A stretch of DNA of 40,000 bases from contig NZ_JALDYX010000007.1 in assembly GCF_024267675.1 (NCBI RefSeq), positions 142,555 through 182,554 of the forward strand, written 5' to 3'. Positions 21,360-35,016 of this stretch are shown here, piece after piece. This DNA is from Marinobacterium sedimentorum (GTDB lineage Bacteria > Pseudomonadota > Gammaproteobacteria > Pseudomonadales > Balneatricaceae). Every line of letters starts with the position of its first letter. The stretch's first letter is position 1. The notes under the pieces were generated by a model. It did not search any database, was not told where the DNA came from, and saw only the letters and a list, made by a program, of their open reading frames with translations. The translations under genes and the position numbers were made by a program.

Positions 21360-22862
21360 ATGAGCACCGAGTCTCCCCGTACCTCAACCGCCGTCCAGGT
21401 GGGTGAGTTCTATGAACTCAATACAGGCCCGGACGTGCGCAACAGCGCCCACTATAACGAGGATATAGCCCCCACCCGGATCAGCGAGCGTACCTGGTCG
21501 ACCTGGAACGTCGCCGCCCTCTGGGTCGGCATGGCCATTTGCGTACCCACCTATACCCTGGGCGGCGTGCTCACCGCCTATTTCGGTCTGTCGGTGAGTG
21601 AGGCCCTGATCACCATCCTGCTGGCCAACCTGGTGGTGCTGATTCCGCTGACGCTCAACGCCTATGCCGGCACCAAGTTCGGCATCCCCTTTCCGGTATT
21701 GCTGCGCTCGTCCTTCGGTATTCTGGGCTCCAACATCCCCTGCCTGATTCGCGCCCTGGTGGCCTGTGGCTGGTTCGGCATCCAGACACTGTTCGGCGGC
21801 GTGGCCATCCATATACTCTTCTCGACCCTGATTCCCGGCTGGGAGAGCCTGGGCGGTACCGGCGAGGTCATCGGCTTCTTCATGTTCCTGGTGATGAACC
21901 TCTTTATCGTCATCAAGGGATCGGAATCCATCAAGATCCTGGAGACCCTGTCCGCTCCGCTGCTGCTGGGTGTGAGTATCGGCCTGATGATGTGGGCCAT
22001 GCCCCAGGTATCCATCACCGAGCTGCTGGAGATTCCCGCCAAACGTCCGGAAGGTGCCTCTTTCTGGGGTTACTTCTTCGGTGGACTGACCGCCATGGTC
22101 GGCTTCTGGGCCACCCTGTCCCTGAATATTCCGGACTTCAGCCGTTACGTTAAATCACAGAAGGACCAGATCACCGGCCAGATTATCGGCCTGCCCCTGA
22201 CCATGCTGTTCTTCGCGTCCCTGGGCGTTGTACTCACCGCCGCCTCCGCCAGCCTGGTGGGCGAAACCATTTCGGACCCGGTCAACCTGATCGGCAAGAT
22301 CGACAGCCCCGTCTGGGTCGTGATCGCCATGATCATGATCATCATCGCCACCCTGTCCACCAACACCGCCGCCAATATCGTCTCGCCGACCAATGATTTC
22401 CAGAACATAGCCCCCAAGAAAATCAACCAGACCCGCGGCGTGCTGCTGACCGGCGCCCTGGGCATAGTACTGATGGGCTGGGAGCTGCTGAAAAAGCTCG
22501 GCATCATCGAGTCCGATGTCAGTGTCGAGGCCATGTATACCGGCTGGCTGCTGGGCTACTCCAGCCTGCTGGGGCCGATTGCCGGCATCATGATCGTCGA
22601 CTATTTCGTCATCAAGCGTCAGTTCCTGAACCTGCCTGAACTGTACAAGACCCACGGCATCTATCGCGGCTTCAATCCCGCGGGCCTGACCGCCTTTGGC
22701 ATACCGGTGGCCCTGACGCTGTTTTCCATCAGCACCGGCTACCTGAACTGGTTCTATCAGTACGGCTGGTTTACCGGCTCCATTCTCGGCGGCCTGGTGT
22801 ACTGGGTTGCCGCCAGCAAGCAGCCTGCGCCCGTCACCCAGGGCCTGGCCCAGGGTAACTGA
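21360..22862 (+). CDS. NCS1-family nucleobase:cation symporter (uracil/hydantoin/allantoin permease-like)
   Basis: 500 aa with about 12 TM helices. The N-terminal NEDIAPT..ERTWSTWN motif is typical of NCS1 (Mhp1/PucI/FUR-like). AGAGGA RBS. Confidence 0.9.
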   Translation: MSTESPRTSTAVQVGEFYELNTGPDVRNSAHYNEDIAPTRISERTWSTWNVAALWVGMAICVPTYTLGGVLTAYFGLSVSEALITILLANLVVLIPLTLNAYAGTKFGIPFPVLLRSSFGILGSNIPCLIRALVACGWFGIQTLFGGVAIHILFSTLIPGWESLGGTGEVIGFFMFLVMNLFIVIKGSESIKILETLSAPLLLGVSIGLMMWAMPQVSITELLEIPAKRPEGASFWGYFFGGLTAMVGFWATLSLNIPDFSRYVKSQKDQITGQIIGLPLTMLFFASLGVVLTAASASLVGETISDPVNLIGKIDSPVWVVIAMIMIIIATLSTNTAANIVSPTNDFQNIAPKKINQTRGVLLTGALGIVLMGWELLKKLGIIESDVSVEAMYTGWLLGYSSLLGPIAGIMIVDYFVIKRQFLNLPELYKTHGIYRGFNPAGLTAFGIPVALTLFSISTGYLNWFYQYGWFTGSILGGLVYWVAASKQPAPVTQGLAQGN

Positions 22863-22963
22863 AGCCCGATGACGGCCGGAGCCCGCAAAGGGCCCCGACC
22901 GTCACAGGCCGACTGACTGTTTCAGGCTCTTGATTGTTTTAAAGAAGAAGGAAGGAGAGACCC

Positions 22964-24409
22964 ATGTCCATCGTGATCCGTGGTGGTACAGTCGTGACCG
23001 CCGACCACAGCTTTAGGGCCGACGTTTATTGTGAAAATGGCCTGATCGCCGCCATCGGCGAGCATCTGGAAGTACCCACCGGCGCCGAGGTCATCGACGC
23101 CAGCGGTCAGTACATCATGCCAGGCGGCATCGACCCCCATACCCATATGCAGCTGCCCTTCATGGGCACCGTCGCCACCGATGATTTCTACACCGGCACG
23201 GCGGCGGGCCTGGCGGGAGGCACCACCAGCATTATCGACTTCGTAATCCCGGCCCCCGGCCAGCGCCTGATGGAAGCCTATGAGCAGTGGCGCGACTGGT
23301 CCGCCAAGTCGGCCTCGGACTACAGCTTCCATGTGGCCATTACCTGGTGGGACGACTCGGTAGCCGCCGACATGGAAACCCTGGTCAAGGATCACGGCGT
23401 TAACAGCTTCAAGCATTTCATGGCCTACAAGAACGCCATCATGGCGGACGACGAAATTCTGGTGAAGAGCTTTCGCCGCTCGGTGGAGCTCGGCGCCATG
23501 CCCACGGTGCATGCCGAAAATGGCGAGCTGGTGTTCCAGCTGCAGCAGGAAATGCTGGCCCGCGGCCTGACAGGCCCCGAAGCGCACCCGCTGTCGCGCC
23601 CCCCCATAGTGGAAGGCGAGGCGGCGAATCGCGCCATCCAGATCGCCCAGGTGATGAATGTGCCTATCTATATAGTGCATGTATCCTGCAAGGAGTCACT
23701 GGATGCCATTACCCGCGCCCGCAACGATGGCCAGCGCGTTTACGGTGAAGTGCTCGCAGGCCACCTGGCGATCGACGACAGTGTCTATCGCAACGAGAGC
23801 TTCGAGTTTGCCGCCGCCCATGTGATGAGCCCGCCGTTTCGCTCAAAACAGCATCAGCAAGCACTCTGGCAGGGCTTGCAGGGCGGCAATCTGCAGACCA
23901 CCGCCACCGACCACTGCTGTTTTTGTGCCGAGCAAAAAGCCGCCGGCAAGGACGACTTCACCAAGATCCCCAACGGTACCGCCGGCATTGAAGACCGCCT
24001 GGCCGTTATCTGGGACGAGGGCGTCAACAAGGGTCGCCTGACGATGAACGAATTTGTTGCGGTGACCTCCACCAATACTGCCAAGATCTTCAACCTTTAC
24101 CCGCGCAAGGGCTCGGTCTCGGTAGGCGCCGATGCCGATCTGGTGGTCTGGGATCCCGCCGGCACCCGCACCATTTCGGCCAAAACCCACCATCAGAATA
24201 TCGACTTCAACATCTTCGAAGGCCGCACAGTCACCGGCATTCCCAGCCATACCCTGAGCCAGGGCAAGCTGGTCTGGTGCAACGGCGAACTCAGGGCCGA
24301 GAAAGGCGCCGGCCGTTATCTCCATCGCCCCGCCTTTGCTCCGGTGTTTGACGCCATGGCCAAAAAGCGCGAACTGGAAGCACCTGTGCCGGTGCAGCGC
24401 GACCGCTAA
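22964..24409 (+). CDS. dht: Dihydropyrimidinase / D-hydantoinase
   Basis: Cyclic-amidohydrolase motifs [13 protein letters not shown] (HxH metal site), SFKHFMAYK (carboxylated Lys) and VHAENG. Length is 481 aa. Confidence 0.92.
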
Positions 24410-24432
24410 ACACGACCCCAAGGAAAGAAGTC

Positions 24433-33251: not shown

Positions 33252-33299
33252 GCTATTATTAACCCGACTGGTTAATAGCGACCTTTTAAAAGCCAGTTT

Positions 33300-34310
33300 T
33301 TAACCCTTGAAATGCGGGATAATATGCTCGCCGTACTGGGCGATAATATTTTCCTCGTCACCGTTATCCAGGTAGATATTGAACTGGGTCGTGCCTGCTT
33401 CCTTCAAATGGTTCAGTTTGGCGATATGCTGTTCGGCCTCACCCAGCACGCAGAAACTTTCAACGATTTCCGGCGTGATGAAATCCAGGTAGGGGTTATC
33501 GCTCTGGCCATGCTTGGAATAGTCGTAGCCTTTGCGCTTCTCGATATAATCGGTCAGGCTCTTGGGCACCAGGCCACTGTCGGTACCGTACTTCTCGACG
33601 ATATCGGCCACATGGTTACCCACCATGGCCGGGAACCACTTGGTGGACTCAACACAGCTGGCCCTGTCGCCGAAATAGGCCGGTGCTGCGGCAATGACCT
33701 TGAAGTTGGACATGTCACGGCCGGCTTCCACGCCGGCAGCGATGGCCTGATCCGCCAGCCACTTGACCAGGGCAGGCTCACCGATCTGCAGAATCACGCC
33801 ATCACCCACCTCCCCTGCGGTTTTCAGCGCCATCGGGCCGTATGCACCTATGTGTACGGGCAGTTCGTAGCCCTCAGCCCAGGGGAACTGCACCGGTTCC
33901 GGGCATTCGCCGTACATCACTTCCTCACCACGCACCATGGCTTTCACCTTGGTGGTGAACTCGGCCACACGGGCCAGGGTGGCGGGCTTCTTGCCCATGA
34001 CACGTACCGAGCTGTCGCCGCGCCCCAGACCCACTTCAAAGCGGCCACCGCTCTGCTTGGCCAGGCTGCCAAAGAGGCTGGCTGCCAGCGACCAGTCACG
34101 GGCATTGGGGTTGGTCACGCAGGGGGCGAACTTGATGCGCGAGGTATGTTCCATGCACATGGCGATGGCCGGGTAGCATTCGCGCCACAGGATATGGGAG
34201 TCGTAGAACCAGCAGTAGTCAAAGCCGGCGTCCTCGGCCTGTTTCACCAGTTTACGGGCACGGTCGTGGCTGACAAAACCTTTAAAGCAGATACCAAATT
34301 CCATAGTCAC
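33300..34310 (-). CDS. Luciferase-like (LLM) oxidoreductase, predicted F420-dependent
   Basis: TIM-barrel LLM features (FGICF.., FDYCWFYDSH, FEVGLGRGDS). It has Mer/Fgd-like length (about 335 aa) and lies immediately downstream of npdG and the cof genes. I recall similarity to the TIGRFAMs CPS_4043 family, but this is unverified. Confidence 0.78.
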   Translation of the reverse strand: MTMEFGICFKGFVSHDRARKLVKQAEDAGFDYCWFYDSHILWRECYPAIAMCMEHTSRIKFAPCVTNPNARDWSLAASLFGSLAKQSGGRFEVGLGRGDSSVRVMGKKPATLARVAEFTTKVKAMVRGEEVMYGECPEPVQFPWAEGYELPVHIGAYGPMALKTAGEVGDGVILQIGEPALVKWLADQAIAAGVEAGRDMSNFKVIAAAPAYFGDRASCVESTKWFPAMVGNHVADIVEKYGTDSGLVPKSLTDYIEKRKGYDYSKHGQSDNPYLDFITPEIVESFCVLGEAEQHIAKLNHLKEAGTTQFNIYLDNGDEENIIAQYGEHIIPHFKG

Positions 34311-34344
34311 TCTCCTGAGTCTTTGTTTTTATTGCAGAAAAAAA

Positions 34345-35016
34345 TTAATGCGCGTCGGGTGGGCAGATGCGAATACCGGCGTGGCTAAAGGGCACTTTCT
34401 TGGAAATATTCAGGCGGATCAGAATGGGCGTGATGGCCTCGATGCAGCGGGCGCTTTCGGCCGGGCCGCAGTTGTAGGCAGCGACATCCAGCTTGCGAAT
34501 CAGCTCGATGACCTTTTCCTTGGCTGCCAGATCATTGCCACACACCAGCACATCGCAGTTGATGCTGTGGTCCAGATCATTCAGTACCGTGGCCGAAACG
34601 TTATGCAGCGCGCCCACCACCGGGATGCTGTCCCCCAGCAGCGCCTGGGCCGCTTCAGTGGCAGAACCCGCCGCCGGCATGTCCACGCGCTTGGGGTCTC
34701 CCTGGGCCAGGGGCACGGCAATGTCGATCAGCACCTTGGCCACCAGCAAATCCCTGATGGACTCAAGCGTGGCGTCATGGGCACTGTAAGGCACCGCCAG
34801 AATCACCAGCTCATCGGCCTGCGCCACCGCTGTGCGGATATCATGGCCGCTGATCCTGGCCGCGGCAGGGCTCAGCAGGGCGCCAAGTTCTGCCGCCGCA
34901 TCCGCCGCACGGGCCGCGTCACGCGAGCCAATCGCCACCTCGATACCGGCACGGGCAAAGCGCAGTGCCAGACCCCGGCCCTGGGGACCGGTACCACCCA
35001 GAATGGATATTTTCAT
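34345..35016 (-). CDS. npdG: NADPH-dependent F420 reductase (F420H2:NADP+ oxidoreductase)
   Basis: The N-terminus [33 protein letters not shown] is the hallmark NpdG/Fno Rossmann segment. Length is 223 aa. Confidence 0.85.

Follow-up and report, generated by a model that had tools for sequence, protein, structure and literature searches.

Dihydropyrimidinase and carbamoylase genes of Marinobacterium sedimentorum are associated with an F420 operon and a putative F420-dependent pyrimidine reductase

Gene content of the locus

We analysed a 40-kb stretch of DNA from Marinobacterium sedimentorum (assembly GCF_024267675.1, contig NZ_JALDYX010000007.1, positions 142,555 to 182,554), hereafter called the window. 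Genes for steps 2 and 3 of the reductive catabolism of pyrimidines are found here close to an operon for the biosynthesis of coenzyme F420 and to a gene encoding an LLM-class F420-dependent oxidoreductase (hereafter the LLM). From the sequence alone, it had been proposed that this LLM, supplied with F420H2 made by NpdG, provides the missing step 1, i.e. the reduction of the ring (hereafter the original prediction); the comparative genomics reported below strongly supports this proposal. The gene map is based on Pfam and NCBIfam scans of all plausible open reading frames (ORFs) of the window. The window belongs to Marinobacterium: the LLM protein is 98% identical to its M. aestuarii counterpart, and the proteins of the region are 93-98% identical to those of a M. 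profundum locus (L008).

Two strands are used. On the plus strand, an operon starts with a NCS1 nucleobase:cation symporter gene (21360-22862; PF02133, 308 bits; TIGR00800, 324 bits, below cutoff), whose product is predicted to take up pyrimidines or dihydropyrimidines. It is followed by the gene of step 2, encoding a dihydropyrimidinase (PydB/Dht; 22964-24409; TIGR02033 equivalog, 614 bits for a cutoff of 393), which aligns with the solved dihydropyrimidinase of P. aeruginosa (5e5c) with 814 bits, and by a co-operonic gene for a membrane protein of the YdcZ/DMT family (24433-24876; PF04657, 127 bits). On the minus strand, a continuous array contains cofG (38870-40000, incomplete at the end of the window; Radical_SAM), cofH (37614-38879; CofH_C and Radical_SAM), cofD (36637-37617; CofD), cofC (35999-36640; CofC), cofE (35118-36011; F420_ligase; TIGR01916, 256 bits for a cutoff of 181), npdG, encoding the NADPH-dependent F420 reductase Fno (34345-35016; TIGR01915, 200 bits for an equivalog cutoff of 149.8), the LLM gene (33300-34310) and, finally, a gene encoding an M20 amidase (31926-33158; NF006769, 695 bits vs. 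452). This last enzyme is the candidate for step 3, as N-carbamoyl-beta-alanine amidohydrolase (PydC function). It falls in the hydantoinase/carbamoylase family (TIGR01879, 440 bits for a cutoff of 204) and aligns with the solved and characterised N-carbamoyl-beta-alanine amidohydrolase 8c46 (494 bits) and with the yeast beta-alanine synthase (289 bits), scores that do not settle its substrate specificity. The dihydropyrimidinase with its NCS1 permease and the M20 carbamoylase are thus exactly where the original prediction had placed them. The same is true of their arrangement: the M20 gene lies directly downstream of the npdG-LLM pair on the same strand, and the gap of 141 bp (33159-33299) holds a strong intrinsic terminator after the LLM gene (33251-33234, minus strand; GGGGCAGTGCGCTGCCCC followed by TTTTTT; 7-bp stem with six GC pairs).

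The permease-dihydropyrimidinase operon is 7.5 kb from the M20 gene. Between them are found a pair of genes encoding a TDO-like protein and a class-V aminotransferase-like protein, which together with an orphan ORF occupy 25079-28519 (plus strand), and the three genes of a transhydrogenase on the minus strand: pntAA (30335-31498), pntAB (29994-30335) and pntB (28619-30013), identified by the Pfam domains PNTB, PNTB_4TM and AlaDh_PNT.

Family and fold of the LLM

The LLM is a member of TIGR03842 (CPS_4043 family), with a score of 498.5 bits for a cutoff of 295.45 in the curated hidden Markov model. Its homologues start at the ATG 34304. It possesses a single PF00296 domain (187 bits). Outside TIGR03842, its best NCBIfam matches are the models of Mer, the F420-dependent methylene-tetrahydromethanopterin reductase, with 127 bits for an equivalog cutoff of 349; Mer enzymes are also its nearest solved relatives, with only 103 bits and about 26% identity. 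An AlphaFold (AF2) model of the LLM (pLDDT 85.9, pTM 0.89) superposes best on Mer-F420 complexes (TM 0.79-0.83), then on Adf and Fgd, and the top 24 matches of a Foldseek search of the PDB are all F420-dependent LLMs (Mer, Adf, Fgd). Moreover, the gene is co-operonic with cofG, cofH, cofD, cofC, cofE and npdG, here and in most of the related loci. Judged from its sequence and its modelled fold, this protein is a bona fide F420-class LLM.

TIGR03842 proteins are 74-98% identical across Marinobacterium, Halomonas, Pseudomonas/Halopseudomonas, Vibrio, Alteromonas, Colwellia, Amphritea, Balneatrix, Reinekea and others. TIGR03842 is an isolated family: in a search of 1.84 billion representatives, no more than 161 reached E <= 1e-30. 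Within the LLM, residues 225-272 are invariant between the aligned gammaproteobacterial and actinobacterial TIGR03842 sequences, with the pattern W-F-x-x-M-V-G-N-H-V-A-D-I-V ... L-T-x-Y-I-x-x-R-x-x-Y-D-Y-x-x-H-G. From this conservation, the block is a candidate substrate site, though it is also the part where the LLM model is least confident.

Two other assignments of this protein were rejected. It is not a RutA-like oxygenase: RutA is not among the 17 LLM models matched in the NCBIfam scan, and no rutB-rutG genes are found in the window. It is not a member of the PydA/PreTA family either, as these enzymes combine an FMN-binding DHO_dh domain, an Fe-S ferredoxin and a FAD/NAD(P)H subunit, vs. 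the single PF00296 domain of the LLM.

Search for a dihydropyrimidine dehydrogenase

The original prediction had found nothing resembling step 1 (PydA or PreT-PreA) in the 40 kb, and this stands. In Pfam scans of all plausible ORFs of the window, no protein displays a DHO_dh, ferredoxin or GltD-type architecture, and tblastn with the PreT and PreA proteins of E. coli K-12 gives no match in the window at E <= 1e-3. With the same queries, no PreT/PreA was detected in any of the loci fetched around LLM or dihydropyrimidinase homologues, a search that covered these neighbourhoods. In addition, we clustered all against all the unexplained ORFs of 87 related loci and of the window, and no other conserved oxidoreductase was found in the flanks of the LLM gene. 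The only extra families that recur are an aldehyde dehydrogenase, a CN-hydrolase, a GTP cyclohydrolase II and lineage-specific neighbours.

Conservation of the gene neighbourhood

A scan of 185,579 species genomes yielded at least 599 pattern-matched stretches, of which at least 446 were confirmed to encode a TIGR03842 relative. Synteny was studied on the best 80 of these at least 446 loci, with 10-kb flanks, which carry 33 genus-level labels of marine Gammaproteobacteria. For the counts of neighbours, the tblastn queries were the window's proteins, supplemented by a few from relatives. The core operon cofGHDCE-npdG-LLM is kept in Marinobacterium, Halomonas, Alteromonas, Vibrio and others, with npdG present in 74 of the 80 loci and cofE in 73. 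The M20 carbamoylase gene is present in 70 loci, a TetR gene of the RutR family in 68, a NCS1 gene in 52, the dihydropyrimidinase gene in 26 and pntA in 22. Co-localisation of this LLM subfamily with dht or carbamoylase genes, which the original prediction had put forward as a check, is indeed widespread: 73 of the 80 genomes, from 29 of the 33 genus labels, have an M20 or a dihydropyrimidinase gene within 10 kb of the LLM gene, and the association extends to an actinobacterial branch described below. Five of the seven loci without either gene are contigs that end early.

The M20 gene lies directly downstream of the LLM gene in 35 of the 80 loci, with gaps of 31-374 bp. The pnt genes come after the M20 gene in 22 of them (10 genus labels), and the YdcZ-family gene adjoins that of the dihydropyrimidinase in 13 loci (10 genus labels). 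Gene order is otherwise quite variable. In Colwellia and one unclassified gammaproteobacterial metagenome-assembled genome (MAG), the whole set NCS1-dihydropyrimidinase-cofGHDCE-npdG-LLM-M20 is on one strand (L034, L040, L047 and L084). In Halieaceae, Halioglobus and a Pseudomonadales MAG (L029, L031, L044 and L052), the dihydropyrimidinase gene is followed by the LLM gene after a gap of 12-75 bp, and the cof genes are not adjacent. The annotated flanks of the first of these loci (L029) contain a divergent unit of a NCS1 gene and a nitrilase-superfamily amidase gene, as well as a RutR-family gene; nitrilase-superfamily amidases are the other known type of beta-ureidopropionase. In Marinomonas, a divergent NCS1-M20 unit lies beside RutR-cofG.

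The neighbours of close dihydropyrimidinase homologues recovered the same islands. The island of Halomonas elongata (L089) spans 21 kb. It contains genes for a LysR regulator, an omega-aminotransferase, a CoA-acylating methylmalonate-semialdehyde dehydrogenase (673 bits vs. 448), a CN-hydrolase, NCS1, the dihydropyrimidinase, a cytosine permease (567 bits vs. 326), a cytosine deaminase (584 bits vs. 483), YdcZ and RutR, and, on the other strand, pntBAA, M20, LLM and npdG. By these annotations, this island has a gene for every step from cytosine to acetyl-CoA except the reduction of uracil.

The distant LLMs P0241-P0248 are 36-51% identical and still above the TIGR03842 cutoff. The branch of P0245 belongs to the Actinomycetota, with Ilumatobacter among its named members, and its LLMs are 41-43% identical. 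One of its loci (L091) encodes a CN_hydrolase, a dihydropyrimidinase (TIGR02033, 568 bits), a methylmalonate-semialdehyde dehydrogenase (707 bits), the LLM and an ABC transporter, and an aminotransferase gene is close by; a second (L092) encodes the LLM, an ABC transporter with an NMT1-type binding protein, a CN_hydrolase and a dihydropyrimidinase; a third (L093) encodes the LLM and an ABC transporter. No PreT/PreA was found by tblastn in these three loci. They differ from the gammaproteobacterial ones in the type of transporter, the type of step-3 enzyme and the gene order, and lack adjoining F420 genes. As far as gene content can tell, the link between LLM and dihydropyrimidinase is independently present in a second phylum. 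Because the association is kept across rearranged loci in two phyla, a chance adjacency is very unlikely.

A GTP cyclohydrolase II (RibA-like) gene, missing from the window, lies between the LLM and M20 genes at 19447-20055 of L094 and at 19438-20046 of L095 (Pfam). A cluster of 206-aa ORFs at the same position suggests that it is also present in L030, L033, L043, L051, L058 and L083. Such an insertion would plausibly boost the supply of 5-amino-6-ribitylaminouracil for FO synthesis when the operon is on.

RutR-type regulators and operator sites

The TetR regulators of these neighbourhoods carry the YcdC/RutR C-terminal domain PF08362, and their best NCBIfam match is RutR (TIGR03613, about 200 bits). 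The E. coli RutR consensus TTGACCAnnTGGTCAA, with a tolerance of three mismatches, matches the window at eight places, for 1.2 expected. The two best ones lie side by side upstream of the NCS1-dihydropyrimidinase operon: box 1 (TTGACCTTTTGGAAAA) at 20939-20954 and box 2 (TTGACCAAAAGGTAAA) at 20988-21003. A position weight matrix (PWM) was built from the sites upstream of cofG in other genomes (consensus TTTACCAATTGGTAAA; training median, 28.4 bits). With this PWM, boxes 1 and 2 score 28.5 and 29.3 bits, respectively, the latter being the best score of the window. The 16-mer of box 2 recurs without change in Halomonas organivorans (L006), 114 bp before cofG, and the same pair of boxes, with the same 49-bp spacing, is found upstream of the orthologous NCS1-dihydropyrimidinase operon in M. 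stanieri (L046).

Almost every gammaproteobacterial locus has, ahead of cofG, a TTTACC-N4-GGTAAA operator and a gene for a RutR-family regulator. The palindromes, often in tandem and 33-34 bp apart, lie 40-290 bp before cofG in nearly all related loci, and they are also found upstream of the regulator gene and, in Marinomonas and Amphritea, upstream of the M20 gene. The closest relatives of the window, M. profundum (L008) and M. aestuarii (L001), have two boxes in front of cofG, at 258-291 bp, and a RutR-family gene further upstream. Over the 80 loci, the PWM detected 199 sites of at least 18 bits in 1.49 Mb, vs. one to seven in shuffled sequences, and 175 of these 199 sites are at most 400 bp upstream of genes of the regulon. 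As RutR-type boxes precede both, the F420 operon and the permease-dihydropyrimidinase operon appear, from their sequences, to share one RutR-type regulon. No RutR box was found upstream of the pnt genes in any of the 22 loci where they come after the M20 gene.

Several features of the intergenic regions were recorded. The NCS1 start codon lies about 357 nt after the operator boxes (21004-21359), and leader spacings of more than 400 bp are likewise found in M. stanieri and in Pseudomonas-like loci. An Rfam scan of the whole window, aimed at this leader, detected no family, and the stretch may be an unrecognised leader or attenuator. The next-best PWM site of the window is a weaker RutR-like box (TTTATCAAAAGGTTAC, 24982-24997; 17.2 bits) upstream of the orphan ORF (25079-25720, plus strand). 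This ORF has no Pfam or NCBIfam match and no homologue in any related locus; it likely starts at the internal Met of MNRHYYISDN and is predicted to encode a small membrane protein. The stretch from the LLM stop codon to the terminator contains a palindrome, TTAACC-N5-GGTTAA (33260-33276). It is similar, with a spacing that differs by one, to the TTAACC-N4-GGTTAA sites of Marinomonas, which lie about 170 bp before cofG. In Marinomonas vulgaris (L070), the palindrome ATGACTTTATGGTCAT occurs three times downstream of the LLM gene (11114-11327) with an exact spacing of 99 bp, which suggests a tandem repeat carrying a half-RutR-like site. In M. aestuarii, an insertion sequence (DDE_3 transposase; 692-1726 of L001) and other genes have come between the RutR-family gene and cofG, and the tandem operator boxes before cofG are kept despite this element.

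Proposed pathway

Taken together, these data probably describe a RutR-controlled reductive pyrimidine pathway in which an unrelated system based on F420 takes the place of PydA/PreTA. In this pathway, the permease would import uracil or thymine. PntAB, driven by the proton-motive force, would make NADPH from NADH, and NpdG (Fno) would use this NADPH to reduce F420 to F420H2. F420H2 would then serve the TIGR03842 LLM as hydride donor, with C6 of the pyrimidine ring as acceptor, and the 5,6-dihydropyrimidine formed in this way would be ring-opened by the dihydropyrimidinase. Finally, the M20 amidase would release beta-alanine (or beta-aminoisobutyrate), NH3 and CO2. The genes for F420 biosynthesis are co-operonic with npdG and the LLM gene, and would be de-repressed by pyrimidines via the RutR-family repressor. 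What we observed are the identities of the genes, their conserved neighbourhoods and operator sites, and the lack of PreT/PreA in these neighbourhoods; from them we infer the substrate of the LLM, the direction of the electron flow, the control by RutR and, from gene position only, the role of PntAB as a source of NADPH for Fno.

A bolder form of this proposal is that TIGR03842 is an F420H2:uracil/thymine oxidoreductase, non-homologous to PydA, in marine Gammaproteobacteria and some aquatic Actinomycetota, and that the whole of F420 biosynthesis in these Gammaproteobacteria is an accessory of that single step, repressed by a RutR-family protein and inducible by pyrimidines. We give it a probability of roughly 60%.

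Several points weigh against the proposed pathway. In the window, a strong terminator separates the LLM gene from the M20 gene, and the PWM scan found no RutR box of at least 18 bits upstream of M20 or pntAA, so that the link of M20 and pntA is here positional only. A canonical PydA/PreTA may be encoded elsewhere in the genome, as the search covered the window and the fetched loci. The regulators score about 200 bits for a RutR equivalog cutoff of 368 bits, so that they are assigned to the RutR family, with a putative ligand. The RutR gene and the cofG operator of the window's own genome are expected beyond the window edge, by analogy with relatives whose proteins are 93-99% identical (L008 and L001). 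The PWM count of 60/61 for cofG is circular, the matrix having been trained there; this does not apply to the matches at other genes or to the initial finding, made with the E. coli consensus. In Alteromonas (L002) and Vibrio olivae (L004), neither a dihydropyrimidinase nor an M20 gene is found within 10 kb of the LLM gene. Finally, no enzyme assay or mutant phenotype of any TIGR03842 member was found in the full texts available without subscription.

Alternative explanations

The LLM could belong to the pyrimidine regulon and act on another substrate or at another step, with PydA encoded elsewhere. It would then reduce malonic semialdehyde, as a detoxifying enzyme of the PydE/RutE kind, or a modified pyrimidine or hydantoin, or it would catalyse an oxidation with F420 as the acceptor. 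We consider this unlikely, with some arguments on its side. Characterised relatives of the LLM include the alcohol and carbonyl enzymes Adf, Fgd and fHMAD, and the reaction of Fno is reversible. Moreover, Alteromonas and Vibrio olivae couple the operon to a beta-alanine aminotransferase and not to the dihydropyrimidinase or M20 genes: directly upstream of the F420 operon, these two loci have a RutR-family gene, a LysR gene and genes for an AptA-type omega-aminotransferase (682 bits vs. 500) and an aldehyde dehydrogenase. However, the islands already hold an omega-aminotransferase and a CoA-acylating methylmalonate-semialdehyde dehydrogenase for the downstream steps, whereas ring reduction is the only step without a gene in any island. 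The tightest couplings, dihydropyrimidinase-LLM (12-bp gap) and LLM-M20, put the LLM at the start of the pathway, and the presence of PntAB and Fno points to NADPH being spent on F420H2.

It is still more doubtful that the locus serves the use of hydantoins or N-carbamoyl amino acids, with a D-hydantoinase and a carbamoylase acting as in the "hydantoinase process" and an F420 enzyme reducing unsaturated (5-ylidene) hydantoins. Dihydropyrimidinases double as D-hydantoinases, L-carbamoylases are found within the M20 family, and the nearest named models of the NCS1 protein are allantoin permeases, below cutoff. Yet the regulator and its operator are of the RutR type, the dihydropyrimidinase is a close orthologue of that of P. 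aeruginosa, cytosine permease and cytosine deaminase genes are embedded in the Halomonas islands, and in both phyla the cluster comes with a beta-alanine-type omega-aminotransferase and a methylmalonate/malonate-semialdehyde dehydrogenase.

A purely historical adjacency without functional meaning, F420 and the LLM serving stress responses or the reduction of xenobiotics, would fit the terminator between the LLM and M20 genes and the unrelated TDO-like/aminotransferase pair between the modules, but it is very improbable given a link that holds in two phyla and in 29 of 33 genus labels, although gene orders are reshuffled and transporters and amidases are non-homologous, and given the common RutR-type operator before cofG and the dihydropyrimidinase operon.

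Comparison with known systems

Under our preferred reading, ring reduction by the LLM, the pathway remains close to the known Pyd pathway. The order of the reactions is kept (reduction, ring opening, decarbamoylation), as are step 2, the candidate step 3 and the NCS1 uptake, and the beta-alanine aminotransferase and semialdehyde dehydrogenase of the relatives are orthologous or of a known type. The difference is in step 1, where the cluster lacks the FMN/FAD/Fe-S enzyme PydA/PreTA and presents instead a TIM-barrel LLM, Fno and a full F420 operon. The PydA variants described in a 2020 paper depend on NADPH, NADH or ferredoxin and are all homologous to each other (PMC7332683); the LLM is not homologous to them. 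The novelty thus likely lies in step 1 of an otherwise known pathway: a non-orthologous displacement, accompanied by a cofactor operon that is dedicated to it and co-regulated.

In mechanism, the closest counterpart is found in picrate degradation, where NpdG and an LLM form a hydride-transferase pair. In Rhodococcus and Nocardioides, the genes of this system are named NpdG and NpdI (Fht). Here too, an NADPH-dependent F420 reductase of the NpdG family (TIGR01915) feeds an LLM-family hydride transferase, which places a hydride on an electron-poor ring to give a compound usable as a source of carbon or nitrogen. The picrate system differs in its substrate, a nitroaromatic xenobiotic, in its LLM subfamily and in its host, where F420 is constitutive and used by many enzymes.

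Mer (1f07, 1z69, 8qpl) is the closest characterised homologue of the LLM, with the same fold and F420-binding family. The LLM is far below the Mer equivalog cutoffs, its locus has no methanopterin C1 context, and its invariant block 225-272 would mark a distinct substrate site. With the Rut pathway, the locus shares a luciferase-like TIM-barrel enzyme proposed to act on uracil, as RutA does, and a putative RutR-type repressor with the operator TTGACCAnnTGGTCAA known from E. coli. Nevertheless, RutA is an O2- and FMNH2-dependent oxygenase that cleaves the ring and works with RutF, whereas the LLM of the window matches F420-class models, and the downstream enzymes are here of the Pyd type (dihydropyrimidinase and carbamoylase) and not RutB-RutG.

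The original prediction had cautioned that characterised F420 LLM enzymes transfer hydride to C=O or C=N bonds. This caveat was overstated: among the F420H2 reductases of the LLM family, LxmJ acts on dehydroalanine, Fps/Apd6 on an exocyclic C=C and the picrate reductase Fht on the picrate ring (PMC8498797, Table 3). Two precedents are closer to the proposed reaction. A putative F420/FMN oxidoreductase is genetically required for the reduction of the uracil C5-C6 bond in mureidomycins (PMC10714638). This protein (NpsU/SSGG-03002, from the napsamycin and mureidomycin clusters) is a genetic precedent for an F420-type reduction of uracil, in the tailoring of an antibiotic, and was compared by its description rather than by its sequence. 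In a uric-acid cluster of Chloroflexota, a luciferase-family F420 enzyme is predicted to replace a PydA homologue (PMC12507026); this putative F420 LLM "yanthine reductase" is a bioinformatic precedent, with a role in purine catabolism.

Why Proteobacteria make F420 was an open question in a 2021 review of this cofactor, in which Gammaproteobacteria are not mentioned (PMC8498797). In full texts available without subscription, we found no description of an F420-dependent pyrimidine pathway, of RutR together with F420 or of a role for TIGR03842. An RB-TnSeq paper on Mtb, examined for F420 and pyrimidine phenotypes, proved irrelevant. If our reading is correct, it would give a substrate to a family found in at least 446 genome stretches, and a first clear job to F420 in this large group of ocean bacteria, which would make the cofactor on demand for nucleobase scavenging in place of an Fe-S-cluster-rich enzyme. 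The LLM would represent a fourth, non-homologous solution for step 1, beside the NADPH-, NADH- and ferredoxin-dependent PydA, and would explain the gaps called in the pyrimidine degradation of Halomonas, Marinomonas, Marinobacterium, Colwellia and relatives. It would also be one of few cases in which the entire operon for making a cofactor lies within one catabolic pathway and is predicted to be co-regulated with it. Nucleobases being a relevant source of nitrogen in seawater, the pathway may matter for the turnover of marine dissolved organic nitrogen, and a uracil reductase free of Fe-S clusters could serve as a biocatalyst.

Other features of the window

The left 20 kb of the window carry genes for the degradation of fatty acids and aromatic compounds. 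A large cluster for aromatic-compound degradation (7265-19468, minus strand) encodes a Rieske oxygenase with a VanA_C domain, a small Rieske ferredoxin, a ferredoxin reductase and an extradiol dioxygenase, together with two short-chain dehydrogenases/reductases, an alpha/beta hydrolase, a cupin, a major facilitator superfamily (MFS) protein, an aldehyde dehydrogenase, an aspartate-dehydrogenase-like protein, a thiamine pyrophosphate (TPP) enzyme and an HTH_62 protein. An IclR regulator is encoded beside it, at 20026-20934.

Between the two pyrimidine modules, the pair at 26071-28519 (plus strand) starts with the gene of a TDO-superfamily protein (PF03301, 333 bits; tryptophan 2,3-dioxygenase equivalog, 171 bits for a cutoff of 391), which is translationally coupled to a class-V aminotransferase/kynureninase-C-like gene. 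This pair is probably unrelated to the pyrimidine pathway. It also adjoins pntB in M. aestuarii and M. aestuariivivens.

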